Source of the DNA: Acidobacteriota bacterium
GTDB taxonomy: Bacteria > Acidobacteriota > UBA6911 > RPQK01 > CBDAPI01
Length of the DNA: 64,000 nt
Assembly: GCA_965205345.1 (NCBI GenBank)
Contig: CBDBGQ010000053.1
Location: 129,842-193,841, forward strand
Direction: 5' to 3'
The stretch's first letter is position 1. Every line of letters begins with the position of its first letter. Positions 10,179 to 64,000 of this stretch are shown piece by piece. A program made the position numbers and the translations under genes. Under the pieces are notes generated by a model. The model had not been told where the DNA came from. It ran no database searches and saw nothing but the letters and a program-made list of their open reading frames with translations.

Positions 10179-11543
10179 CTACACCTCCCAGGGTTGCCGG
10201 TACTCTTTGGTCAGAAGCTGGTTGGCCTCCTGATCCCCTATAATCTCTTCTTTCTTCCAGTCCCATTCGATCTTACGGCCTACTTTCAAGGCAATGTTGG
10301 CCAGGTGTGGAGCTGAGGTTGAACGGTGACCGGTCTCGATGTCGGAGGTGGGTCTGCTCCGGGTCTTGAGGCAGTCAATGAAGTTGCGGACATGCACAAT
10401 GTGCATTCCAGACTCGGCCCCGACCCTGTACTCGGCCCTGGTTTTGCGATCGCGATCCTCGTCCTCCCAGGGTTTAGGCGGATTCCGGATACTTGCCACC
10501 TCTTGTAAATAGGGCGGCTCGATGTTCTCGGTAATGCCCGTGACCTCAGGCAAGACCTGAAAGCCGGCGCGGTTGAGGAACAGGGTGGCATCCGTTCCGA
10601 AGAACTCAATGCCGTAGTGGCTATCGTAAGGAGCGCGCGCGTTGGTGTCCCGATGGGAGTAAGTGGCGATGAAATCTGGATACTCAAACACCACTTCCAT
10701 GTTGTCGGGTGTTTCCTTGTCGTCTTGAATGACCCTTTTCGAGCTCGTCGCAAAGACACTCTTGGGAGCCTTGACGCCCATGGCCCAGTGGATGGCGTCG
10801 AAGTGGTGTGTGCCCCAGTCGGTCATTTTGCCTCCGGAGTAATCCCAGAACCAGCGAAAATAATAAATGAATCTGCTGGGGTGAAACGGGACCTCGGGAG
10901 CAGGACCCAGATACATGTCCCAATCCAGTCCCTCCGGCGCTGTCGAGATCGGGTGGGTTCCAATCCCGCGGGGAGACTCATTGACGAAGTTCCAGGAATG
11001 GACTCGGGTGACCTGTCCGATTTTCCCGCTGCGGATGAGGTCTACGGCTTCCTGGTAATGCGCACCGGAACGCTGTTGCGTCCCTACCTGTACGACACGG
11101 TCCGCACGCCGGGCGGCCTCCACCATTTTCCTGCCTTCGCGCAGGGTGTGAGAAAGCGGTTTCTCAGCGTAGACGTCCTTACCGGCCTCACAGGCGGCAA
11201 TCACGATTGGGGCATGCCAGTGGTCCGGTGTGGACACCACCACGACATCGACATCTTTTCGATCCAGAACCCGCCTGAAATCTGAGTAGGACTCGGCCTT
11301 GCCGTCGGCCATCTTCACTGCCCGATCCCGGTTGTGCTCCCAAACGTCGCAGACCGCCACCACATCCACTTCGGGCATTTTCAGGAAGTCGTTTAAATTG
11401 TATCTACCCATGCCGCCGCCGCCGATGGAGGCTACTCGAATCCGGTCATTCGCGCCTGCGGGCTGTTGATTTGCTGCCCAGGTCGTAGCGACGCCCACGC
11501 CCGCCATACTGCTGGAAACAAAAGTTCGCCTGTTCACTTTCAT
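10179..11543 (-). CDS. Gfo/Idh/MocA family oxidoreductase with twin-arginine (Tat) signal peptide
   Basis: Internal Met followed by NRRTFVSSSMAGVGVATTWAA (RRxF Tat motif), then the IGGGGMG NAD-binding motif. The ORF-track start at 11663 is probably too far upstream. Confidence 0.8.
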   Translation of the reverse strand: MKVNRRTFVSSSMAGVGVATTWAANQQPAGANDRIRVASIGGGGMGRYNLNDFLKMPEVDVVAVCDVWEHNRDRAVKMADGKAESYSDFRRVLDRKDVDVVVVSTPDHWHAPIVIAACEAGKDVYAEKPLSHTLREGRKMVEAARRADRVVQVGTQQRSGAHYQEAVDLIRSGKIGQVTRVHSWNFVNESPRGIGTHPISTAPEGLDWDMYLGPAPEVPFHPSRFIYYFRWFWDYSGGKMTDWGTHHFDAIHWAMGVKAPKSVFATSSKRVIQDDKETPDNMEVVFEYPDFIATYSHRDTNARAPYDSHYGIEFFGTDATLFLNRAGFQVLPEVTGITENIEPPYLQEVASIRNPPKPWEDEDRDRKTRAEYRVGAESGMHIVHVRNFIDCLKTRSRPTSDIETGHRSTSAPHLANIALKVGRKIEWDWKKEEIIGDQEANQLLTKEYRQPWEV

Positions 11544-11782
11544 GGCTCTGGTTCCCCTTCTTGGAGGTGATTTGTGTTTTCTGAAAGTCGGAAATCGGGC
11601 ACAGTCTAGCATGTTTCCGATCAAGACGCTGCCACTGGCCAGGAACTCCCGAATCGAAGACAATCCAGGCTCTACTGCGCAATGCTCGGTCTTGGGGTAC
11701 TGGACGGGCCGGCTGGAGGACTTTTATTCTGGACATGCTCCCGATCTCCCGGCTCCGCTGCCCTGTCTGGAGGTCAATACCC

Positions 11783-11947
11783 TTAGTGTACTGTCCGGAA
11801 AGTTCACGCCGCAACTTCGGGCGTCTTTTCGCCGACAGCATTGTTGCGCTAACTCGAAAAACTCCCGGTATTCCTGCGTCGCGCGCCTCACTGACGACGA
11901 AAATCCATCCCGAATTAACGACGCGGACTTCCCGGACAGCACACTAG
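11783..11947. mobile_element. MITE copy A (~165 bp), flanked by TTAG/CTAG
   Basis: Terminal inverted repeats gtgtactgtccggaaagttcacgccg ... cgcggacttcccggacagcacac. It is about 90 percent identical (reverse orientation) to the copy at 57700-57864. Confidence 0.7.
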
Positions 11948-11951
11948 ACGT

Positions 11952-13919
11952 CTAAAGAACTGACAGTTCGATTTCCACGCGCCGATTCTGTTGCTGACCT
12001 TCAGGGGTCTGGTTGTCAGCCGTCGGCTGGCCCTCCCCGGCACTTCTTGTTTCAAGTCGTCCTGCCTCGATGTTGTGCTGCTGGACCAGATAGTCCCGCA
12101 CGGTGGCGGCCCTCCGCCGGCCCACCCGAAGGTTCAGCTCCTCATCTCCCCGGTCGTCCGTGTGTCCTGTAATTACAGCTTTTAGTCCGGGTATTTGCTG
12201 CATCCTGAGCGCAATATAATTCAGCCTAGCCTTGGCCAAGTTATCTGGCTGCATTCCGTTGATTTGAATGATGAACCGCTCGCTGAACGGGTAAGAACCA
12301 GCATCGGTGGCGCTCCCGTCTCCATCATCCCCAACGGTCATCGAGACGCTGGATCGTCCCTCCGCGTTCGCTGACATCAGAGTCTTCTTCCAAAAATCTC
12401 GAGCCTCCTCGTGATATGAGAGCACTTCCCGGCGTTGATCCGTGTTATCCAAATCCGTGTCATCCAACGTGTTATCCAATTTGATGCGTTGGATGCGTTC
12501 CTCGACCCAATCGAGGAAGAATTGTGCGGAGCGTCTGCTGATTCGGCGTTTCGAAGAACCGATCTCAACGTAGAATGGTGCGGTTGAGGCGAAGCGAAAG
12601 GTTTGCTCGTTATCAGTGATGACTCGAACAAGGAACCAGCCGCTCTCTTGAAATTTCAGTGGCCCGAGAGCTCGTGAGAACGTACGTCCTCGTACCTTGT
12701 CCACCGACTCGACCGTGCCGTTTTTGATGATTTCAAGACTCGAAATCGGGTCTCTCGTTGTGACCGAGACGTCAAGAGTGACACTCACCTCTTTGCCCTC
12801 ATCTGCCGCGAAAACGTGGCCGGGCAGATGACCGTTTGCGCGACAGAGCAGCAGCGGTCCGTTTGTGACGAACGAGCGCCCCGCCTTCAGACCGTTCCAC
12901 CATCGCACATAATCAAAGGCTTTGCCGACATGGACATATACGCGGTTATAGCCTACTGGATTGGGGATTACACCCGAAGCACTTCCGGCTGAAGGGGGGA
13001 TGCGGAGTCCGCAGTCGAGAATGTGATAGTAGATTTCCTGCGACCAGTAACCGTTGCCCTTGGGCGGCGGAAAACGCTTTGAATCGCGTGGTTTGCCCGA
13101 GGCTTCGCTTTCATACATTTGGCTACGGCTCATATGATTGTTGGCCAGGCCGATCGAGTCGATCCGCCCACTCGCCAGCCAGATGGGTACATCCCACCAG
13201 AAGGGCTTCTCGATGTCGATCCATGCACCGGGATGTTGGCGGGCCTCATGGAAGAAATTCATCGAGGATGGATACTCTCGGCTTGATCCGGCAATCTTCA
13301 GCGGCCGGCCAAGATTGAGATATATCAAAGCCCCGCCCCCACGTTCATCTTCACCGGCCATGACATGGGCATACCGGTTGCCGTCGAACCTGAGCAAGGG
13401 CTTTTCAGGCATCTCGCGGTCGTTCCACAGATTCCTATCGTTCCACCACGTAATCACCGGTGCCACATGCAGATCTTCCGCCCGCATGAGGAGTTCGATG
13501 TCCTCAAGCGATCGGTGAACATGCAGCTCCCCCGACCACCAGCCATCAGCCGAAAGGTTGGCTATCCGCTTCAGACGGATCGACACTTTCGTGTTCTCAC
13601 CTTTCTTGGTGATAAACGAACCGCTCCGCTGCTCATACTCAGGGCCGCGCTCGACTTCGTAGGTGTACTTCCCGGGCGGGAGTTCCAGTGTGACTGTGCC
13701 AGGACAGACGAAATGGTCGCGCCAGAACGGCATATCCCCGGCACGCCGAGGCTTGCCGGCCGAATCGTTCACATGGATTCGACACGGAAGCAGACGAGAC
13801 TTATCGTCAACAACAGTGATCTGAACTGTGGGGTGGCTGTTCTGTGCGACACTCATAGCGGCAATACAGAGCGTCACAAGACACATAACACACGGGGCGC
13901 GTTGCCATAAACTGAACAT
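11952..13919 (-). CDS. Secreted PHP/CehA-McbA-type metallohydrolase domain fused to a C-terminal OmpA-like peptidoglycan-binding domain
   Basis: N-terminal signal sequence; the SGELHVHRS block is a PHP-type His motif. The C-terminus has the GHTDDRGDEELNLRVGRRRAATVRDYL ... NRRVEIEL OmpA_C signature. Confidence 0.65.
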   Translation of the reverse strand: MFSLWQRAPCVMCLVTLCIAAMSVAQNSHPTVQITVVDDKSRLLPCRIHVNDSAGKPRRAGDMPFWRDHFVCPGTVTLELPPGKYTYEVERGPEYEQRSGSFITKKGENTKVSIRLKRIANLSADGWWSGELHVHRSLEDIELLMRAEDLHVAPVITWWNDRNLWNDREMPEKPLLRFDGNRYAHVMAGEDERGGGALIYLNLGRPLKIAGSSREYPSSMNFFHEARQHPGAWIDIEKPFWWDVPIWLASGRIDSIGLANNHMSRSQMYESEASGKPRDSKRFPPPKGNGYWSQEIYYHILDCGLRIPPSAGSASGVIPNPVGYNRVYVHVGKAFDYVRWWNGLKAGRSFVTNGPLLLCRANGHLPGHVFAADEGKEVSVTLDVSVTTRDPISSLEIIKNGTVESVDKVRGRTFSRALGPLKFQESGWFLVRVITDNEQTFRFASTAPFYVEIGSSKRRISRRSAQFFLDWVEERIQRIKLDNTLDDTDLDNTDQRREVLSYHEEARDFWKKTLMSANAEGRSSVSMTVGDDGDGSATDAGSYPFSERFIIQINGMQPDNLAKARLNYIALRMQQIPGLKAVITGHTDDRGDEELNLRVGRRRAATVRDYLVQQHNIEAGRLETRSAGEGQPTADNQTPEGQQQNRRVEIELSVL

Positions 13920-20178: not shown

Positions 20179-20231
20179 CTAGTGCACTGTCCGGAAAGTT
20201 CACGCCGCGAACTTTCCGGACAGGACACTAG
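20179..20231. mobile_element. Miniature (53 bp) version of the MITE: the two TIRs fused, flanked by CTAG
   Basis: Sequence ctag-tgcactgtccggaaagttcacgccgcgaactttccggacaggaca-ctag. The terminal CTAG supplies the TAG stop codon of the adjacent TPR gene. Confidence 0.65.
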
Positions 20232-21118
20232 CGTTCCTGAGTACCAGCGTTAGCTTCTAATATTTTCTGTATTTTCTTGAGAGAAGGATTGTCCGAGTCT
20301 AGTTCGAGCGCACGTCTAATAACATCCAGTGCTTTCTTAAATTTACCCTGGTGTCCATAAGCAAGGGCAAGTCCCTCATGAGCTGCTGGATTTTGAGGAT
20401 CTAGTTCTGTCAGAGCATTAAATCGCTCTACAGCAGTTTTGAAGTCTCTCTCTTGCAAAGCTTTTTCACCTGAAGTGCGTAAAATGAATTGCTGGACCTC
20501 ATTTTTTGTTGAGCTAAAACCTGGATCCAATTCGGCTGCTCTTTCTGCTTCAGCCAAAGCCTGTTTCTCGTCTAGCATTCCTGCATAGGCGCGGGCCAAG
20601 TTATCGTGCAAGGTAGCATCCTCAGGATAATGATTTAAAAGTCTTTCCAGCCCTTGGATAGCGGTTTCAAAATCGTGATTGTTAAGTGACTCAAGCACTT
20701 TCTTCTCTAGGTCCTCAAACTCCTCTTGCTTAAGCAAAACTCTGTGGAGATGCTCGGCTGCTTGCATTTTGATCATCACCTTAAAAGGCATGTAGCCCTT
20801 AAGCTGAGCCTGAACCATATAGCTACCTGGCTGTAGACCCCTGAATTCGACTCGTCCCTCTGTATCCGACTTTCGGTAATTCGCTTCTCCCTCTTTTTCA
20901 TCCTCAGCATCCAGAAATATAAGCTGAGTCTCGACACTCTCTAAGGGATCTCCCTCCTTATCAACGAAAGTACAAACCAACGGGTGAGAGGCAACCCGGA
21001 AACCAAGCAAAAAAACAGACAGGATAGTCAGGCTGCTGGCCTTTCCCAGTGCTCTTAACATAGTGTTTCGCTCTCGGTCGCCGCAGAACGCATCAATGCT
21101 CCTTGCAAAAATATTCAA
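20228..21118 (-). CDS. Carboxypeptidase-regulatory-like domain plus TPR repeat protein
   Basis: N-terminal beta-sandwich block (GRVEFRGLQPGSYMVQAQLKGYMPF) followed by TPR units. Has a signal/TM segment after an internal Met. Confidence 0.6.
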   Translation of the reverse strand: MNIFARSIDAFCGDRERNTMLRALGKASSLTILSVFLLGFRVASHPLVCTFVDKEGDPLESVETQLIFLDAEDEKEGEANYRKSDTEGRVEFRGLQPGSYMVQAQLKGYMPFKVMIKMQAAEHLHRVLLKQEEFEDLEKKVLESLNNHDFETAIQGLERLLNHYPEDATLHDNLARAYAGMLDEKQALAEAERAAELDPGFSSTKNEVQQFILRTSGEKALQERDFKTAVERFNALTELDPQNPAAHEGLALAYGHQGKFKKALDVIRRALELDSDNPSLKKIQKILEANAGTQER

Positions 21119-53019: not shown

Positions 53020-53254
53020 GGAACGATCCTCCGTTAATATTCTTGTGCTGCGTTACGAACCTGCCGACGTTCTCACGCCGTGCCGCCCGGTTCCCGAGGG
53101 TATCAGGAGTTGCCATCGATTCCAAGGGCGAGGTGGGGCCGATTCGCCTTGCTCCAGAGCAGCATACAACTCACCCAGAACCGGGAGAATCTAGGGGCCG
53201 GTATCCCACAACCTAGTGCAGCTCGCCAAAAGTTTGGTAGTGGGTCAGTTTGAA

Positions 53255-54148
53255 TTAGGTAGTATTCTTTTTGTACGGTCCACGGGTCAAATATCCCGCG
53301 TGCATCTCTTCTCGCTCCTTCTGTTCTAGAAGTCCAACGATCTCCTCTGTTTCCCACACATGATCCGAGACACCAACTTCCATTGCGGGGGTCACTCTCA
53401 GACTACTATGGACCCTAGCGAAGTTGTAGTACATGAAGTGAAGCGCTACGGCATGGCATAGATTCTCTACCTTTTTGCTGAAAGCATTGGTCAAGCGGGT
53501 AAACCGCCTCATGCTCATTCGCATCGTGAGGTTCTGTCTCTCCACATAGCTGGTTGAGATGAAGTCCGGATTCGGGTTTCCAGTGACTGTCTCCCGTTTG
53601 GTTCTGTTGCACTTTGCTGGGCTGTAACGGCTCTCTTTCTCTACCGGGGGCGCACCGTACACCTTGATGAGCATGGAATAGTCCACGTCTCCACCGAAAG
53701 CTCCATCTACGGCTTCCAGGTAGACCTTGTGGCCGTCAGTGGTTAGCTGGATGCGATTGGCCATCCTATCTGCCAGATCGCGCATGAACAGGGAGGCGGT
53801 ATCTCCGTCCCTGTTTCCAACCATCCAAGTTGGGACGATCTTGGTATCAGCGCAGATCGCCGTCCATGTCCAGACATCACCATATCCGAACTCCCCTTGT
53901 CTTTCCTCTGGAACGTTGGAAGCCTTCGAGTAGCAGAACGACCAAATCTCGTCACACTCGATCCGCTTACATGATAGATCCCGTAGGGTTTCATGCTGAT
54001 ACTCAGCGCAGACCTCGCCAATCTCCGCCAGGAGCTTCACGACCGTGTTTTTAGATACGCCGGTCATCCTGACGGTGGATCGGATGGAGTTACCCTCAAC
54101 CAGGGCGGAAACGATCTGAACCCTCTTTTTGGTGGAAAGCCTGTTCAT
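53255..54148 (-). CDS. IS1/IS1595-family DDE transposase
   Basis: Has an N-terminal HTH (STKKRVQIVSALVEGNSIRSTVRMTGVSKNTV). Blocks CDEIWSFCYSKASN, TDGHKVYLEAV and YVERQNLTMRMSMRRFTRLTNAFSKKVENLCHAVALHFMYYNFARVH...TPAM parallel the IS1 InsB / IS1595 catalytic region. Confidence 0.65.
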   Translation of the reverse strand: MNRLSTKKRVQIVSALVEGNSIRSTVRMTGVSKNTVVKLLAEIGEVCAEYQHETLRDLSCKRIECDEIWSFCYSKASNVPEERQGEFGYGDVWTWTAICADTKIVPTWMVGNRDGDTASLFMRDLADRMANRIQLTTDGHKVYLEAVDGAFGGDVDYSMLIKVYGAPPVEKESRYSPAKCNRTKRETVTGNPNPDFISTSYVERQNLTMRMSMRRFTRLTNAFSKKVENLCHAVALHFMYYNFARVHSSLRVTPAMEVGVSDHVWETEEIVGLLEQKEREEMHAGYLTRGPYKKNTT

Positions 54149-54236
54149 AGGAATATTGTGCCTGATTTAGCTTACACAGTCAAGCATTCTTATGACTTTG
54201 CTTTTTTGCGCAGACTGATGTGTTAGCCTCCTAGGC

Positions 54237-55382
54237 ATGGAAGAATGCCACATGGACTGTAAAACTCCGGGCCAATTGATCAGGGCGCTTTTGGAGGAAT
54301 ACGGCTGGACACAGAGGGTCTTGGCAATAGTGCTGGATGTCGATGAAACTGGAATAAACAAGATCGTATCGGACAAGCGGCCCATTAAAGCCGAAATGGC
54401 TATCTTGCTAGGTGAGCTTTTCGACACTCCCGCCGAGAGATTCCTAGAACTTCAGAAACTCTACGATCTTGCGAAAGCCAGGTTTTCCGCACGCCCAGAC
54501 GCAGGCCGGACAAATCGGGCGCATCTATTTGGTGGCCTACCAGTCACGGAGATGATTAAGCGGAGGTGGATAGAAGCCAAGGATATTAAGGACGTATCCG
54601 CCGTGGAGTCTTCTCTGGCGAGATTTTTCGGGGTTTCTTCGCCCCAGGAAATAGAGATTCTTCCGCACGCTGCCAAGAAAACCGTTGTTTCGTGTCCGGC
54701 CAGCCCCAGCCAGTTGGCATGGATCTACCGGGTGAAGCAAATCGCCAGTGAAATGCTTGTCCCTCCATACTCAACAGTGGCTCTAAAGAAGGCCCTCCAT
54801 AGGTTGAGTGCCTTGTTGTCGGCACCCGAAGAAGCCCGCATGGTACCAAGAATACTTGCCGAGAGCGGAATCCGTTTTGTCATTGTCGAATCTATTTCCT
54901 CGGCCAAGATAGATGGTGTTTGTTTTTGGTTAGACGACCGTTCTCCTATTGTGGGAATGTCACTTCGATTTGATCGTATCGACAACTTCTGGTTCGTCCT
55001 TAGGCATGAATTAGAACATGTCTACAGAAAGCATGGACGCATAGCCGTGGCCCTAGATGCGGAGCTGGAAGGCGATCGCGCTGGAACCGGCTCCCACATT
55101 CCTGAGCAAGAACGAATCTCCAACATGGCAGCCGCTGAATTTTGCGTGCCCTCAGAGAGTATGGACAGCTTCATCGCCCGAAAAGCGCCGTTTTTCGCGC
55201 AGCGGGATCTGCTTGGATTCGCCACAACATTGGGCGTTCATCCAGGTCTAGTGGCTGGCCAACTACAGCATCGGACGGGCCGTTATGATCTATTCCGAAA
55301 TCATTTGTCTAAGATAAAGTTTGCCGTCGCTCCCAGTGCTATGGTCGATGGTTGGGGCGACGTTGCCCCTGTGGAGATGTGA
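54237..55382 (+). CDS. XRE-family HTH domain fused to ImmA/IrrE-family zinc metallopeptidase (COG2856-like)
   Basis: N-terminal Cro/C1 HTH (GQLIRALLEEYGWTQRVLAIVLDVDETGINKIVS). C-terminal HEXXH motif (RHELEHV) with downstream Glu, typical of ImmA/IrrE. Confidence 0.75.
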   Translation: MEECHMDCKTPGQLIRALLEEYGWTQRVLAIVLDVDETGINKIVSDKRPIKAEMAILLGELFDTPAERFLELQKLYDLAKARFSARPDAGRTNRAHLFGGLPVTEMIKRRWIEAKDIKDVSAVESSLARFFGVSSPQEIEILPHAAKKTVVSCPASPSQLAWIYRVKQIASEMLVPPYSTVALKKALHRLSALLSAPEEARMVPRILAESGIRFVIVESISSAKIDGVCFWLDDRSPIVGMSLRFDRIDNFWFVLRHELEHVYRKHGRIAVALDAELEGDRAGTGSHIPEQERISNMAAAEFCVPSESMDSFIARKAPFFAQRDLLGFATTLGVHPGLVAGQLQHRTGRYDLFRNHLSKIKFAVAPSAMVDGWGDVAPVEM

Positions 55383-55399
55383 TAGGAGAAAAAGGAACA

Positions 55400-55873
55400 A
55401 TGGGAAAAACTAAAGAAATGCAGTTGATCATCAAGCAGTACAAGGACATGACCGGAGAGACACAAGTGGATATACATAAGGTGGCGAAGTTCGCTGCTGA
55501 TATGGGATGGCCCTTGTCGCAACCAGAGGACCCTCTTGATCGGCTTGCGCAGAGTTTTACCAGAGCCGCTCGTAAGGAGATCAAAAAAGACAAGGCCACA
55601 AACAGGACGTATCGCGTTAATCATGCAATCCCTGATCCAACCGGGCAGTATTCGCTTTGGATCGACATCGATGAAGCTCCAAGAAAGCACATGCACAAGT
55701 CTCTGGTTAATCGACGGGAGCAGATGGTAGGCGATGGACTGCAACTGACGCTTGATGCGGATCACTGGAACCGAATCAATCCAAACGAGGAACCGATTCA
55801 GCTACCCATGGACTTTACTCAAGACGTTGAATGGCGAAAGAATGCACCGCAAAGGGATCGAGAGGCGAGCTAG
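55400..55873 (+). CDS. Hypothetical protein (157 aa) immediately downstream of the HTH-ImmA gene, inside the IS
   Basis: Has a good RBS (aggagaaaaaggaacaATG). I recognise no family and it has no TM. The ORF-track start at 55352 overlaps the ImmA gene, so the internal Met is preferred. Confidence 0.45.
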   Translation: MGKTKEMQLIIKQYKDMTGETQVDIHKVAKFAADMGWPLSQPEDPLDRLAQSFTRAARKEIKKDKATNRTYRVNHAIPDPTGQYSLWIDIDEAPRKHMHKSLVNRREQMVGDGLQLTLDADHWNRINPNEEPIQLPMDFTQDVEWRKNAPQRDREAS

Positions 55874-56154
55874 TCAGAATTAGACTTCTTTTTCCAGCGT
55901 GCTTCTGCAGCAGTTTTGGCAATCTCAGAGCGTTGCTCTGGTGTCAGGCTTTGGGCCCGTGCTTTCCCTCCTTTTTGCCCTCCACCGCTTCCCAGGATGG
56001 CCCCACCTAGTTTCAGTAATTCCTCATCGGATAACCTCTGCCGGAGCTTGGCCAACTCCGCATGTATCCGCTCGTCAGAAGTAGCCTCTCCTGTGGTCTC
56101 TCTCAGGATTCGAGCGGCCACTTCGTTAGGATCGCTATCTTGTCGTCTGGGCAT
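55870..56154 (-). CDS. Small hypothetical protein (94 aa) with basic Lys/Ala-rich C-terminal tail
   Basis: C-terminus is GGQKGGKARAQSLTPEQRSEIAKTAAEARWKKK, suggestive of a nucleic-acid-binding tail. It is the first gene inside the right IR, convergent with the 157-aa gene. Confidence 0.4.
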   Translation of the reverse strand: MPRRQDSDPNEVAARILRETTGEATSDERIHAELAKLRQRLSDEELLKLGGAILGSGGGQKGGKARAQSLTPEQRSEIAKTAAEARWKKKSNSD

Positions 56155-56250
56155 GATTGAATTATGTCAGATGGGACCCAGGGCGTGAAGGGCTTAGGAT
56201 TCAAACTGACCCACTACCAAAAGTTTTGACCCAGGCCAGCACCATCTACC

Positions 56251-57703
56251 CTAGCAGCCCGTGGTGAAAGTCGAGGATAAGGGGTCACACAGCGACACTA
56301 GACTGACCCCATGGCAATGGGGAAAAAGAAACGTCGACAGCAAGAAGACCTGTGGGTCGCCACCAGTGAGCTGCCCCGCACCGCCGGCCATCCCTTCTAC
56401 GAAAGACTGAATGGCCTTTTCAACGAACACGGCTTTGACGACTTCGTGGAGGGACTGTGTGCGAAGTTCTATGCAGACAAGATGGGGCGACCGAGCCTGG
56501 CTCCGGGAGTGTACTTTCGGCTGCTGCTGGTGGGGTATTTCGAAGGGATCGGATCGGAACGAGGAATAGCCTGGAGAGCAGCTGATTCTCTGGCACTGCG
56601 AGAGTTTCTGGGATTGAAACTGAGCGAGTCGCCGTCTGATCACTCCACGATCTCCCGAACCCGACGACTGATCGATGTGGCTACCCACGAAGCAGTCTTT
56701 GACTGGGTACTGAAGCGGATCGGGGCGAGCGGCCTGCTGCGGGGCAAGACGATCGGCATCGATGCCACTACGCTGGAAGCGAATGCAGCGCTGCGCAGCA
56801 TCGTGCGCCGGGACAGCGAGCAGGGGTATGAAGAGTTTTTGATGGAGCTGGCGAAAGCCTCCGGGATTGAGACGCCGCGACGGGAAGATCTGGCCAAACT
56901 GGACCGCAAGCGCACGGGCAAAGGATCGAACCGGGTTTGGAAGCACCCGCATGATGCGGATGCGCGGATTACCAGAATGAAGGACGGGCGGACGCACCTG
57001 GCGCACAAGGCGGAGCATGCAGTGGATCTGGAGACCGGAGCGATTGTCTCGGTGACGGTACAGGGAGCCGATCAAGGGGACACGCAGACCATGGTGAAGA
57101 CCCTGACGGAAGCGGCCGAGAAGGTGGAACAAGCGCTGCCGGAGGGACGAGGCATCGAAGAGGTGGTGGCCGACAAGGGGTATCACAGCACGCAGCGGAT
57201 GGTGGACCTGGATGCGGTGGGACTGCGCAGCTATGTGAGCGAACCGAGGCGAGGGAAGCGACGCTGGCGAGGAGACCGGCAGGGGCAGGAAGCGGTGTAT
57301 GCGAATCGGCGGCGCATCCGGGGAGAGCGAGGGCAGCGGCTGCTGCGGCAACGAGGAGAGCAGCTGGAGCGACCCTGTGCGCATCTGTACGGGAGCGGAG
57401 GGATGAGACGGCTGCATGTACGGGGACATGAGAATGTGTTGAAGCGACTGCTGATCCAGGTGAGCGCCTTCAATCTGGGGATGCTGATGCGTCAGAGCCT
57501 GGGTGTGGGAACGCCGCGGGGTCTGCAGGGGCGGATTTGCGCCCTGATGCTACTGATTTTGTCGCTGTTCAAGCGTCTTAAGGGCCTGTTCGGACTGATT
57601 CCGGCTGCTTGGCCCGAAAAACCCAACTCAGCGACCCCTTCGCTGCTTCCACCCGTGGGTACCACCTGAGCTCAGAAAACGTACTTCCACCACGGGCTGC
57701 TAG
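56251..57703 (+). mobile_element. IS5/IS1182-family insertion sequence flanked by CTAG on both sides
   Basis: TIRs are ctag-cagcccgtggtgaaagt (56251-56271) and acttccaccacgggctg-ctag (57683-57703). Confidence 0.7.
56311..57669 (+). CDS. IS5/IS1182-family DDE transposase
   Basis: Has an InsH-like N-terminal domain (FYADKMGRPSLAPGVYFRLLLVGYFEGIGSERGIAWRAADSLALREFLG). The C-terminal DDE region includes VADKGYHS. Confidence 0.75.
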   Translation: MAMGKKKRRQQEDLWVATSELPRTAGHPFYERLNGLFNEHGFDDFVEGLCAKFYADKMGRPSLAPGVYFRLLLVGYFEGIGSERGIAWRAADSLALREFLGLKLSESPSDHSTISRTRRLIDVATHEAVFDWVLKRIGASGLLRGKTIGIDATTLEANAALRSIVRRDSEQGYEEFLMELAKASGIETPRREDLAKLDRKRTGKGSNRVWKHPHDADARITRMKDGRTHLAHKAEHAVDLETGAIVSVTVQGADQGDTQTMVKTLTEAAEKVEQALPEGRGIEEVVADKGYHSTQRMVDLDAVGLRSYVSEPRRGKRRWRGDRQGQEAVYANRRRIRGERGQRLLRQRGEQLERPCAHLYGSGGMRRLHVRGHENVLKRLLIQVSAFNLGMLMRQSLGVGTPRGLQGRICALMLLILSLFKRLKGLFGLIPAAWPEKPNSATPSLLPPVGTT

Positions 57704-57864
57704 TGTACTGTCCGGGAAGTTCGCGTCGTTAATTCGGGATGGATTTTCGTCGTCAGTGAGGCGCGCGACGCAGCAATGCCGGGAGTATTTCGAGGTAGCG
57801 CAACAAAGCTGTCGGCGAAAAGACGCCCGAAGTAGCGGCGTGAACTTTCCGGACAGTGCACTAG
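57700..57864. mobile_element. MITE copy B (~165 bp), flanked by CTAG, abutting the IS5/IS1182 right end
   Basis: Reads ctag-tgtactgtccgggaagttcgcg ... cgtgaactttccggacagtgca-ctag. It is the reverse complement of copy A at about 90 percent identity and shares its left CTAG with the IS terminal CTAG. Confidence 0.7.
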
Positions 57865-57961
57865 CGACTCGTTTTGCCAAGATCGGTTGCAGAACTAGAA
57901 AGACCAGCCTACGGATGTGGTGATTCCAAAATCGTTGCTCTCCACGTCAGACCCGGGGGGA

Positions 57962-60348: not shown

Positions 60349-60957
60349 CTCCGTACAGTTCCTGTTCTTTCCTTTTAAGTTAGGGGTTCCCCACTCAACC
60401 CGCCCGGAGTGTACCAGATCGGAGAGGTGTAGACGCGATCCTGACCAAATTCACATCTCTTCCTTCTTCGCCCGAAAGGTCCTTCTGCGAAACTGCTTAA
60501 TGACGTCTGTGGCCATGGTGCTTTCTCCCCCTTGTGTTGCGCCACGGCCAGCATCGATACCCCGACAGAGAGTGTCAAGTTCCACTCAAACTGTCCATAA
60601 TCCCGGAGGCTGAGGTCAATGTGTCTCATTGCTGCGAAGGGAAACGCAAAGCTTGATCACCAGTTTCCGAATCTCGGGCAGATCCCTGCCCGGGTGTTTT
60701 TCAGCGAACAGGCACGAGTCTGACGAAAACTAAGCGGGAACCACAGGCCCGAGAAGGGGGACAAGGTCAGTGAAGGACAGTGCTAGTCAAGGCGTTTGCT
60801 CAGTGCGTAATCTTCCCAGATCCATGGGAACTGGAGTCATGCTATTCATCCTGCCAACAATGACTCAATTAATGGCCTATCTTACACAAGTCAACGCCGA
60901 GATCCCTGATTAGGACCTCGGAATTCTCCACGCCCGCGGATTCCCGACCCGGGGGCC

Positions 60958-61338
60958 TCAGGGCGGGGAATAAAGGACCAGGTCCGGAATGTCTCGAAAG
61001 TCCCCCAGGTTCAAGGTCCACAGCGCAGCATCTCGGAGAATTGCACCCGCCGAGATGGCGAGATCAATTTCCCGACCCCTGGCCCTGGGGAGACGGGAAT
61101 AGAGATCTGCGGCCAGGGCCGCATCCTCCGGTCCGAACTCAATCGCACGACTACGAGGGAGAAGGGCCTCCTGCGCCTCGAGCTCCGCCGTAAGGCGAGG
61201 GCCGCGGAGCCACTCATAAAGCACCAGAGAAGGGAGAACGATTCGCTCACCTGCCTCAACGGCCGCGCGCAGCCGCAGGGCAGACCGTCGGGGCCCGCAC
61301 AACGCATCGATTAGCAGCGATGTGTCCAGAACAATCAA
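60958..61338 (-). CDS. PIN-domain toxin, VapC family
   Basis: N-terminal MIVLDTSLLID (first acidic residue) with conserved E, D and NLGDF acidic positions. It overlaps the upstream RHH gene by 4 bp. Confidence 0.75.
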   Translation of the reverse strand: MIVLDTSLLIDALCGPRRSALRLRAAVEAGERIVLPSLVLYEWLRGPRLTAELEAQEALLPRSRAIEFGPEDAALAADLYSRLPRARGREIDLAISAGAILRDAALWTLNLGDFRDIPDLVLYSPP

Positions 61339-61631
61339 CGCGACGTCTTCTCTGCCGTTTTCCGTCCGCCGCGATGGCGCGCCGCCCGGACCTGACGGAT
61401 TTCCTCATCGACTTCCGAAACAGGTCGCTCCGGAATGCGCAGAATGACTTCATCAAATACTCGTAGCATCCTCAATCTCTCTCTCTCGCCGAGCCGACCA
61501 ATTCTCTCACTGTAGTCGTGAATCGCCTCCCGGACAACCTGGCTCTTGGGCCTGGAGAGTCGTTCCGCAGCCTGGCGTAGCTTCGTCACCGTCGCCCGGT
61601 CGAGAGTGAAGGTCACTTTGATTTTTGCCAT
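61335..61631 (-). CDS. Ribbon-helix-helix (CopG/VapB-type) antitoxin
   Basis: N-terminal beta-strand KIKVTFTLDRATVTKLRQAAERL, typical of RHH. Paired with the PIN gene. Confidence 0.7.
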   Translation of the reverse strand: MAKIKVTFTLDRATVTKLRQAAERLSRPKSQVVREAIHDYSERIGRLGERERLRMLRVFDEVILRIPERPVSEVDEEIRQVRAARHRGGRKTAEKTSR

Positions 61632-61951
61632 ACTGCTGCCATAGTACCATATAACCTCTTAACTCTGCGGAATCCCCGTAATTCAAGGGACCGTATGATC
61701 TTCTTTGGTGAAACGTCATTGCGTCGGGCCTTGAGAGAGTTCGCCTTAGGGGTCTGCATTTCGAAGCGGATTACCGCCTCGTTGGACCTGGCGAGCGTCC
61801 TGACTACACTCAGGGACGTGACGTTGTGTTTCGCCAACGGCTTCACCCACTCAAGATAAGTCTCCCGGCCCTCTACGGGCCCAAACGGACTGGTATGGAT
61901 CTTACCCCAGTTTTGTTGAGGCGGGTAACAACATCGGAAGTCGCTTTGTGC

Positions 61952-62416: not shown

Positions 62417-63273
62417 TCCGGTGCTTCTTCAGGGAAGTGTTGTTGAGTTCTGACGACATTCCGCGGTGGCCTGTAATCGGATCGCGATCAAAACAAACAA
62501 AAGGAATACCGCACGACTTGTGAAGACGTCCCGGAATGAGAGCCTTTTTTTGGCCAGGCCAGCTTGCATGGCTGGAGTCCTCACAGTCGAGCCGAACTTC
62601 ACAGCCGTGTGCGGTCGCAGAAAGTTGTAATAGGCCATGAGCAGAGCCACCTGGCCTTCCAAGAATTCAGCGCGTCGGGCGTGAGAAGGTGTGCGACGGC
62701 CGACCACTACGGAGACCCAAAGTCTGGACCACACTTCCAGGGTCGTGAGCACCCAGATCACCCGCTCCTTTGCACCAACAAAGGTCCTGATCTCGTCGGC
62801 CTGAAGTTCACAGATCACAAAGCCTTTCAGCATCTGAGCGTTGAAACGCTGTGCGTATGCGGCTGCCGATTCAAGCCAGCGGGCGACTGTGACCCAGGAC
62901 ATCCGCTTGATGCGAGCCATGGCGGAGATCCCGATTCCATGGACACACATACGGACGACTTCATCGAACAAGGATCTGGGCTTATGCAGCCGATAATAGG
63001 GTGTTCCGTGGGTGGAAGAGAAGGTTCTGCCGCACTGCTTGCAACGGTAGCGCCGGCATCTGCCCTGTGTGGTGATGTAAAAGGAATGGCGGATGATGTT
63101 GCCTCTTCCTGAGAGTCCTTTGAAGGAGCAATCGGGGTTGGGACAGCAGCGAGATGATCTCTTGCTCCGTTTCATACATGTTTGTTGCCAGAAAACGAAG
63201 AGGAAATCCAGTTAGAATCATGTGTTACGAGGCTGTCCGCAAAAGTCAACAACACTTCCCTGAAGAAGCACCG
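62417..63273 (-). mobile_element. IS1/IS1595-family insertion sequence (~857 bp) with perfect 29-bp terminal inverted repeats
   Basis: ccggtgcttcttcagggaagtgttgttga at 62417-62445 and its reverse complement at 63245-63273. No target-site duplication. Confidence 0.75.
62429..63175 (-). CDS. IS1/IS1595-family transposase with N-terminal zinc finger
   Basis: Has CPNPDCSFKG...CKQCGRTF (InsA-like zinc finger). ELQADEIRTFVGAKERVIWV and LLMAYYNFLRPHTAV...TPAM blocks parallel the other IS1-like transposase in this window. Confidence 0.7.
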   Translation of the reverse strand: MKRSKRSSRCCPNPDCSFKGLSGRGNIIRHSFYITTQGRCRRYRCKQCGRTFSSTHGTPYYRLHKPRSLFDEVVRMCVHGIGISAMARIKRMSWVTVARWLESAAAYAQRFNAQMLKGFVICELQADEIRTFVGAKERVIWVLTTLEVWSRLWVSVVVGRRTPSHARRAEFLEGQVALLMAYYNFLRPHTAVKFGSTVRTPAMQAGLAKKRLSFRDVFTSRAVFLLFVLIAIRLQATAECRQNSTTLP

Positions 63274-63400
63274 GATTTGCGAAGAATATCGGTTGGGGAG
63301 GCGTTTGAGTGGTTGGGGGAGTGAATTTCAGACAGATCTGGGCCTGGATGAGTATCGGAAGCGGTTTTTTGGGGAACTGGGAGAAGCTAGCTGGAGTTGA

Positions 63401-63614
63401 GGCGACTCAAGACGAGGTGGAAGAGGGGTTGTTCGGGAAAGGCTGAGGAAAGATGGACCCAGATGCGTCGAGTGGTTTGTCGGATGCGGGCCCCGATCTT
63501 GAGGACAGGCGACTCAAGACGAGGTGGAAGAGGGGTTGTTCGGGAAAGGCTGAGGAAAGATGGACCCAGATGCGTCGAGTGGTTTGTCGGATGCGGGCCC
63601 CGATCTTGAGGACA
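63401..63614. repeat. Perfect 107-bp tandem duplication (2 copies)
   Basis: 63401-63507 is identical to 63508-63614 (ggcgactcaagacgaggtggaagaggggttgttcgggaaagg...ccccgatcttgaggaca). It covers the 3' end of the IS4-like transposase ORF. Confidence 0.9.
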
Positions 63615-64000
63615 CGACGACGTAAGGTTTCGATTTCGAGCTTGTGCCAGGGAGTCCCGTGCAGATAGTCGCGGAGGCGCACGAACATCTGGTAAGCCAG
63701 TGCATGCAGGAGGAGTCGAAACTGATTGGCCAGGAATCGATGACAGCTGAGTCGGTCCATGCTCAGATGATTCTTGAAGGCCTTGATGAAGTTCTCGGTC
63801 TGCCCTCGGTTTGTATAGTGGTCATAAAGTGATTGGGAGCAGAGATCGTCCCGGTTGGTGACCACAAAGCGACGATTGATCCCGCGCTGATCGACCTCCA
63901 CTTTGACAATGACGCGACGGGATCGATCCCAGCTCTTGGCTCGATAAAGAAACTCGTCAAACTGACGCTGTTTTTCCTCCAGCTCAACGAACTGCAGCCG
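63407..64000 (-). CDS. IS4/IS1380-like DDE transposase, C-terminal part (5' end beyond window)
   Basis: Own translation continues open to position 64000 (...RLQFVELEEKQRQFDEFLYRAKSWDRSRRVIVKVEVDQRGINRRFVVTNRDDL...). Has the YTNRGQTENFIKAFKNHLSMDRL Y-x2-R-x3-E-x6-K signature of the IS4/IS5 superfamily. Confidence 0.6.
   Translation of the reverse strand, partial: RLQFVELEEKQRQFDEFLYRAKSWDRSRRVIVKVEVDQRGINRRFVVTNRDDLCSQSLYDHYTNRGQTENFIKAFKNHLSMDRLSCHRFLANQFRLLLHALAYQMFVRLRDYLHGTPWHKLEIETLRRRVLKIGARIRQTTRRIWVHLSSAFPEQPLFHLVLSRLSSRSGPASDKPLDASGSIFPQPFPNNPSSTSS

Follow-up and report, generated by a model that had tools for sequence, protein, structure and literature searches.

A CTAG-flanked MITE family in uncultured Acidobacteriota, very probably derived from the left end of an IS630-family insertion sequence

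Repeat loci in the window

The stretch of Acidobacteriota DNA analysed here (64,000 nucleotides, referred to as the window) contains three loci of a short repeat, two of them full-length copies lying in opposite orientation (copies A and B) and the third a much shorter form (mini-copy C). All three have in common 23-nt terminal inverted repeats (TIRs) and flanking tetranucleotides of the form YTAG (Table 1), as an initial annotation made from the letters alone had stated and as reading and aligning the sequences has now borne out. Aligned over 164 nt, copies A and B show an identity of 94.5%, somewhat above the figure of about 90 percent first given, and their status as copies of one repeat stands. 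Matching of the TIR pattern GTRCACTGTCCGGRAAGTTCRCG to the window with up to three mismatches returned six matches, corresponding to the two ends of each of the three elements, against a chance expectation of 0.00 in 100 dinucleotide-preserving shuffles of the window.

Copy A, a 161-bp element starting at 11785 between TA repeats, is intergenic and lies on the downstream side of a gene with an OmpA domain, 4 bp from the stop codon of that gene. Copy B and an IS1182-like insertion sequence (IS) of 1445 bp meet at a shared CTAG, located at the left-end (IRL)-like terminus of the former and at the right end of the latter, confirming an adjacency noted at the outset. Copy C consists of the two TIRs joined via approximately 5 nt at a short repeat (ACG/CGC), and its first description as a TIR-only derivative was correct, both 23-nt TIRs being kept. 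With lengths of 165 and 53 bp, and with no Pfam match for any of the open reading frames (ORFs) that cross them, the copies are small (below ~300 bp) and non-coding as befits a MITE. Since these ORFs lack Pfam matches and extend over DNA missing in close relatives, they are artefacts, in agreement with the initial annotation; for annotation purposes, the value of recognizing the MITE lies in the spurious ORFs that the repeat yields.

Table 1. Coordinates of the repeat copies, their neighbours and related elements (positions without a locus label refer to the window)
Feature	Location	Strand	Description
MITE copy A	11783-11947	+	Full length, 165 bp including flanking tetranucleotides; flanks TTAG...CTAG
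MITE copy B	57700-57864	-	Full length, 165 bp including flanking tetranucleotides; flanks CTAG...CTAG
Mini-copy C	20179-20231	+	53 bp, symmetric central deletion; flanks CTAG...CTAG
ORF through copy A	11542-11955	+	No Pfam match
ORF through copy A	11446-11841	-	No Pfam match
ORF through copy B	57609-57923	+	No Pfam match
ORF through copy B	57578-57880	-	No Pfam match
OmpA-domain gene	11952-13919	-	
TPR-repeat gene	20228-21118	-	TAG stop overlaps right CTAG of copy C
Mobile nest at one ancestral CTAG	53217-57891	.	4.7 kb: ~3-kb element, IS1182-like IS, MITE copy B, 30-bp tail
~3-kb element of the nest	53221-56250		Inner inverted repeats GGTAGTGGGTCAGTTTGAAT at 53236 and 56199
ORF of the ~3-kb element	53255-54148	-	297 aa; weak IS1/IS240 DDE matches
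Gene of the ~3-kb element	54237-55382	+	HTH_3 and Peptidase_M78 (IrrE-like)
IS1182/IS5-like IS	56255-57699	+	1445 bp; TIR CAGCCCGTGGTGRAAGT; CTAG on both sides; 452-aa transposase (56311-57669)
PIN gene	60958-61338	-	Toxin-antitoxin pair with RHH gene
RHH gene	61335-61631	-	Toxin-antitoxin pair with PIN gene
DDE_Tnp_1_4 transposase, 3' part	63407-63901	-	Within shared repeat 63272-64000
IS630-family element	L075 4986-6155		CTAG-flanked, 1.17 kb; also in L018 and L019, 99.7% aa identity
Second, related IS630-family element	L107 6971-8141 (L107/L108)		CTAG-flanked, 1.17 kb
Other IS630-like IS	L038 6145-7646 (OZ252114)		Transposase 34% identical; TIR TGCAGCTCGCC
Mini	L076		53 bp, symmetric central deletion
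Mini	L077		76 bp, symmetric central deletion
Mini	L110		85 bp, symmetric central deletion
251-256-bp MITE subfamily	L074 6318-6573		~90-bp internal insert
251-256-bp MITE subfamily	L077 653-911		~90-bp internal insert
251-256-bp MITE subfamily	L118 981-1236		~90-bp internal insert
28-bp palindrome	L010 5193-5228		Two IS1182-like TIRs (CAGCCCGTGGGA-CTTT-TCCCACGGACTG), CTAG-flanked
Copy at non-CTAG target	L030		Flanks TTAG...CTAG
Copy at non-CTAG target	L034		Flanks CTAG...CTAC
Copies at non-CTAG targets	L095, L119		Flanks CTAG...CTAA
Copy at non-CTAG target	L113		Flanks CTAG...CTAT

Family size and insertion polymorphism

A scan for the TIR core, covering one genome per species and taking matches paired at 131 bp (the spacing found in copies A and B), identified such pairs in seven long-read Acidobacteriota MAGs among the matches listed (CBDFLV01, OZ252114, CBDCBX01, CBDAPI01, CBDBHK01, OZ240092, CBDBID01), and unpaired matches in unrelated phyla were about as numerous as chance would produce with an 18-mer. 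The copy count by BLASTN that the initial annotation had proposed was carried out on loci of these seven MAGs with copy B as query, and found at least 28 more full-length copies, 89–99% identical and all at different sites. Flanks were CTAG...CTAG in nearly all full-length copies among the matches listed, conservation of the TIRs extends to more than 28 copies, and further copies are present on contigs of a few JGI metagenomes.

OZ252114 shows synteny with the window, at a nucleotide identity of ~97–98%, and in this genome (locus L103, flanks ~98% identical) site C is empty and occupied by a single CTAG, so that GTTCA-CTAG-GGTTCC in L103 and GTTCA-CTAG[49 bp]CTAG-CGTTCC in the window form a clean empty/filled pair with target duplication. 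In a second polymorphism, L095 has a full-length copy at a site whose homologue in L031 is empty (flanks 82% identical). These filled/empty pairs identify the MITE as mobile DNA, and the concern raised initially, that related strains might offer no empty sites, did not hold. The two remaining sites are less clear-cut: OZ252114 is without 314 bp at site A (11637–11950), of which the MITE accounts for only 165, the extra 146 bp being unique sequence absent together with copy A from L103 (~19226), and at site B relatives are without an entire 4.7-kb nest, a difference that is hardly informative on the MITE itself. Close to site C, L103 differs by a 119-bp indel, which was considered as a second MITE and rejected, being unique sequence with no repeat. 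Taken together, TIRs, target duplication, many copies and insertion polymorphism establish the three loci as copies of a true MITE family, as had been claimed for them.

Target duplication and parent element

At canonical CTAG targets a duplication of TA and a duplication of CTAG are indistinguishable, and the distinction rests on seven non-canonical copies. In all seven of these informative copies variation is confined to the outermost flank base (Table 1), and the constant inner G and C hence belong to the element. Moreover, a 4-bp duplication would give identical flanks, and it is excluded by the unequal flanks seen at these targets (such as TTAG...CTAG or CTAG...CTAC), contrary to the CTAG duplication put forward initially. 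A duplication of TA, with element termini G...C, fits all seven non-CTAG copies. ISY100, a member of the IS630 family, inserts almost exclusively at TA, which it duplicates (PMC2170065), and a preference of IS630 for TA within 5'-CTAG-3' has been described (Tenzen & Ohtsubo 1991, as cited in PMC2170065).

The search for a parent IS with matching ends, another step suggested in the initial annotation, led to related MAGs. Three solitary TIR matches in MAG CBDAPI01 (L018, L019 and L075) run on into one common sequence, a CTAG-flanked IS630-family element, and a second, related element was found at L107/L108 (Table 1). The protein encoded by the former (359 aa) scores 279 bits against the NCBIfam model transpos_IS630 (NF033545; cutoff 100), and combines the Pfam domains HTH_32 and DDE_3 with a catalytic triad D176/D259/E295, that is, DD35E. 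Its IRL (CTAGTGTACTGTCCGGGAAGTTCACGATGTTAAT) agrees with the MITE end at 22 of 23 nt within the TIR and at 29 of 34 nt when subterminal bases are included, and the L107 IRL agrees at 20 of 23 nt. Both MITE arms are IRL-like and not IRR-like, and the MITE is therefore an inverted duplication of the left ~80 bp of the IS. Elements of the IS630 family are the sole ISs found with matching ends. A tblastn search found no IS630 transposase gene within the 64-kb window, nor did the matches listed include an IS630 transposase with matching TIRs from OZ252114, the closest genome. A REP/REPIN identity, with mobilization by a RAYT, was rejected in view of the target duplication and of ends that match a DDE element of the IS630 family.

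The three loci thus very probably represent a non-autonomous MITE derived from the IRL of an IS630-family (Tc1/mariner-type) IS of uncultured Acidobacteriota and moved in trans, the mobilization in trans being what we infer from TIR identity and from the behaviour of the family. In the mechanism proposed, the 165-bp unit, two inverted IRL-like arms amounting almost to a single long hairpin, would be bound at its 23-nt TIRs by the DD35E IS630 transposase and moved in trans by cut-and-paste. Insertion would occur at TA, with a strong preference for 5'-CTAG-3', and TA would be duplicated. With element termini G...C, each insertion would rebuild CTAG at both ends, and these rebuilt CTAGs, rare in the genome, may then become preferred targets for the MITE and for other CTAG-seeking elements.

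The family had first been assigned to the IS5 superfamily, implying that the MITE is moved by the neighbouring IS5/IS1182-like transposase and duplicates 4 bp of CTAG, a view which is understandable given that CTAG borders most copies at both ends and that the IS1182-like IS, itself CTAG-flanked, adjoins copy B and several others. We now regard it as extremely unlikely. The TIR of the IS1182-like IS (CAGCCCGTGGTG...) is identical to that of the MITE at only 3 of 23 nt, far below the agreement with the IS630 IRL, the unequal flanks at non-CTAG insertions are compatible with a TA duplication only, and IS and MITE abut in both relative orientations, as fits independent insertions into a common target. 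The IS1182-like IS, which carries the Pfam domains DUF772 and DDE_Tnp_1, has IS1182 as its best NCBIfam match (173 bits, below cutoff) and is 99.9% identical to L083 3898–5342, is a separate CTAG-targeting element, unrelated to the MITE TIRs. The assignment is corrected accordingly from IS5 to IS630 with TA duplication.

Insertion at stop codons

The right-hand CTAG of copy C overlaps the end of a TPR-repeat gene, the stop of which is the complement of CTA at 20228–20230, and the mini-copy had been credited with supplying this stop codon. Literally this is so, for the third base only, but it is without consequence. In the empty site of OZ252114 the gene already ends in ...GAA CCC TAG, and the outgroup L104 likewise has CCC TAG within CTAG; a homologue search, used since the TPR protein has no exact-protein record, aligned its C-terminus at the same position in seven homologues. 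The TAG stop is therefore older than the insertion, and the length of the TPR protein was left unaltered by it: copy C entered a CTAG that contained the stop, the duplication regenerated the stop, and nothing was functionally donated; the protein is unaffected by the 'donated stop codon'. Other copies lie on stop codons or at most 4 bp from them (L010, L079, L098, L034, L095 and window copy A). Since the element seeks CTAG and rebuilds it, copies are often found on TAG stops with the protein unchanged.

Hairpin structure, miniature forms and alternative readings

Folding of the unit, likewise proposed at the outset, gave a very stable long structure, an almost continuous hairpin with an 80-bp stem that is a near-complete palindrome. 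For the consensus, one strand reaches −103.9 kcal/mol and contains 10 G:U pairs, the other −61.9 kcal/mol and 1 G:U; the fold of copy A has z = −10.7. Of 11 transition mismatches between the arms, 10 appear as G:U on the strand that corresponds to the parent IRL in its sense direction. This one-sidedness (binomial probability roughly 0.01, hand estimate) may stem from a constraint on the structure of a single strand, or else from transitions biased to one strand (deamination) in the master copy. Stability and one-sidedness, together with an excess of pairing-preserving single-side changes over pair-breaking ones in 26 copies and the intergenic positions of copies often few bp from stop codons, might suggest that the 165-nt unit is mainly a host-selected structured RNA or regulatory hairpin (for example stabilizing mRNA 3' ends, serving as a target of RNase III or acting as a small RNA), which spreads or is kept for this role as are Correia, ERIC or REP elements. 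This is nonetheless very unlikely, as a hairpin is the trivial outcome of inverted duplication of an IS end and nearness to stop codons is an outcome of the CTAG target. Compensatory changes were seen in 0 of 59 pairs over the 26 copies, curated covariance models at gathering score returned no Rfam match in the whole window, and orientation relative to incoming transcription, by crude greedy ORF calls, was 13 versus 10 and so without bias. Promoter- or terminator-like signals and a U-tract were absent inside the element where copies A and B were scanned.

A related question is posed by the miniature forms (Table 1), of which the 53-bp copy would have arisen by a deletion that removed the middle of the palindrome between short direct repeats, and may in principle be a mobilizable form. 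It is possible, if doubtful, that the 53-bp mini is itself actively transposing and was inserted at site C as such, instead of being the collapsed remnant of a full-length insertion. Both of its 23-nt TIRs are intact, the polymorphism at site C is a clean and recent insertion, a second 53-bp mini is found in another MAG (L076), and ISY100 requires ~24–30 bp per end, 30 bp per end being enough for full activity (PMC2170065). Yet the minis vary in size (53, 53, 76 and 85 bp), all of them being symmetric deletions of the centre; identical minis at separate sites were not encountered, and a gapped TIR pattern for minis had 0 matches in the JGI metagenomes. Moreover, each of the two 53-bp minis corresponds to a different subtype of the full-length MITE (L076 has the right arm of window copy A), and the junctions of both fall within short direct repeats, either ACG or, given a parent copy of the L010 type, ACGCCGC. 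Because of these different subtypes and short-repeat junctions, recurrent in-situ deletion in an unstable long palindrome is favoured as the more economical reading of the minis. More speculatively, the master copy may have been under a strand-specific structural constraint as RNA or single-stranded DNA and, separately, the 53-bp TIR-only form may be a naturally transposing minimal substrate, a pair of ideas that we consider improbable; if true, MITE RNA may pair with or titrate the IS630 transposase mRNA at its 5' end, or shape the 3' ends of neighbouring mRNAs. Longer derivatives were also observed, in the form of a subfamily of 251–256 bp with a ~90-bp internal insert, spread over two MAGs and one JGI metagenome.

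Relation to known elements

RUP, the repeat unit of pneumococcus, is thought to be mobilized by IS630-Spn1, and along with other IS630-derived bacterial and archaeal MITEs (Sulfolobus SM1) it is ~100–170 bp long, non-coding and intergenic, with IS630-matching TIRs, a TA duplication and a high copy number. The present family resembles RUP and SM1 in size, TIRs, TA duplication, copy number and intergenic location, but has no sequence relationship to them and differs in its near-complete palindrome with an 80-bp stem, its strict CTAG context and its TIR-only minis. Correia elements of Neisseria are ~100–155 bp long and often gene-adjacent, with TIRs, a TA duplication, long hairpins in transcripts and size classes that comprise full-length and internally deleted forms. 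They have demonstrated roles as promoters, in IHF binding and with RNase III, and are not known to have a cognate transposase. While size, TIRs, hairpin and size classes are alike, the present family has a matching IS630 parent, and the Correia roles have no counterpart among the results here. A literature search for IS630-type MITEs of Acidobacteria returned nothing specific; the family is, as far as the searched literature shows, previously undescribed, although its kind (IS630/Tc1-mariner-derived) is well known, and it opens no new mechanism. It does mark insertion hot-spots and strain-level polymorphisms in a poorly known group of soil or sediment Acidobacteriota.

The parent elements resemble IS630 (Shigella sonnei), ISY100 (Synechocystis) and the Tc1/mariner superfamily in their length of 1.17 kb and single transposase with HTH and DDE_3 domains, and they share with the IS630 family TIRs of ~23 nt, a TA duplication and a CTAG preference (PMC2170065). 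They differ from IS630 and ISY100 in the DD35E spacing, the activity of the 359-aa transposase being a predicted one. The window elements, for their part, are unlike IS630 and ISY100 in having no transposase, two IRL-like ends and an uncultured Acidobacteriota host. As regards miniaturization, a mosquito study (PMC3814204) describes the conversion of Tc1/mariner elements to Stowaway-like MITEs by a microhomology-mediated route. The minis described here (53, 76 and 85 bp) are similar in arising by internal deletion between short repeats with TIRs kept, and dissimilar in that they start from what is itself a MITE and forms a long palindrome; hairpin-stimulated deletion is likely to be an extra driver in the present case.

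CTAG-targeting elements and other neighbours

The window has 62 CTAGs, where base composition would give 242 (an approximately four-fold depletion on that basis) and a Markov model 93; approximately 7 of the 62 are located at mobile-element ends. MITE and IS1182-like insertions each make new CTAGs, and element ends consequently constitute a sizeable share of the available targets; due to the depletion of CTAG, elements targeting it pile up end to end. Several unrelated CTAG-seeking elements can therefore be seen nesting at each other's ends in a CTAG-depleted genome. Within the window this is exemplified by the nest at 53217–57891: three relatives of 88–90% identity (L105, L106 and L109) are without it and join 53216 directly to 57892 at one CTAG, identifying the nest as a pile-up at a single ancestral CTAG. 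Likewise, the preference for rebuilt, rare CTAGs as targets would explain why copy B adjoins the IS1182-like IS. Ends of IS1182-like elements adjoin MITE ends also in L010, L040, L083 and L098, in both relative orientations: L083 has the same IS with the MITE in opposite relative orientation, in L040 the adjoining IS is 67% identical at the protein level, and in L098 an IS end adjoins the MITE. At the orthologous CTAG (window 53213/57895) L109 has, near position ~1700 of its reverse complement, CTAG-CACA-CTAG at an otherwise empty site, which resembles an excision footprint of the Tc1/IS630 type (terminal ...CAC plus TA) and could also be due to chance.

Further elements were noted in the same contexts. 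In L010 the 28-bp palindrome made of two IS1182-like TIRs lies directly next to a MITE, indicating that the IS1182-like family has TIR-only minis also. The outer left tip of the ~3-kb element of the nest (TGCAGCTCGCC) is the TIR of the other IS630-like IS, in L038, which has inverted MITE copies on both sides via CTAG in a composite-looking arrangement. A terminus (CTAG)ACCCAAAATAAGYR, absent from the window, adjoins MITE ends in L040, L052, L059, L084 and L097, in L059 on both sides of the MITE and inverted, and this repeat is probably a third CTAG-targeting element. Elsewhere in the window, the segment containing the RHH/PIN toxin-antitoxin pair (60946–61674) is 96% identical to L040 6428–7157 in another MAG. 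Finally, the segment 63272–64000, which comprises the 3' part of a DDE_Tnp_1_4 transposase and runs towards the window end, is 93–98% identical to repeats in L018, L068 and L098, and so belongs to another shared IS.
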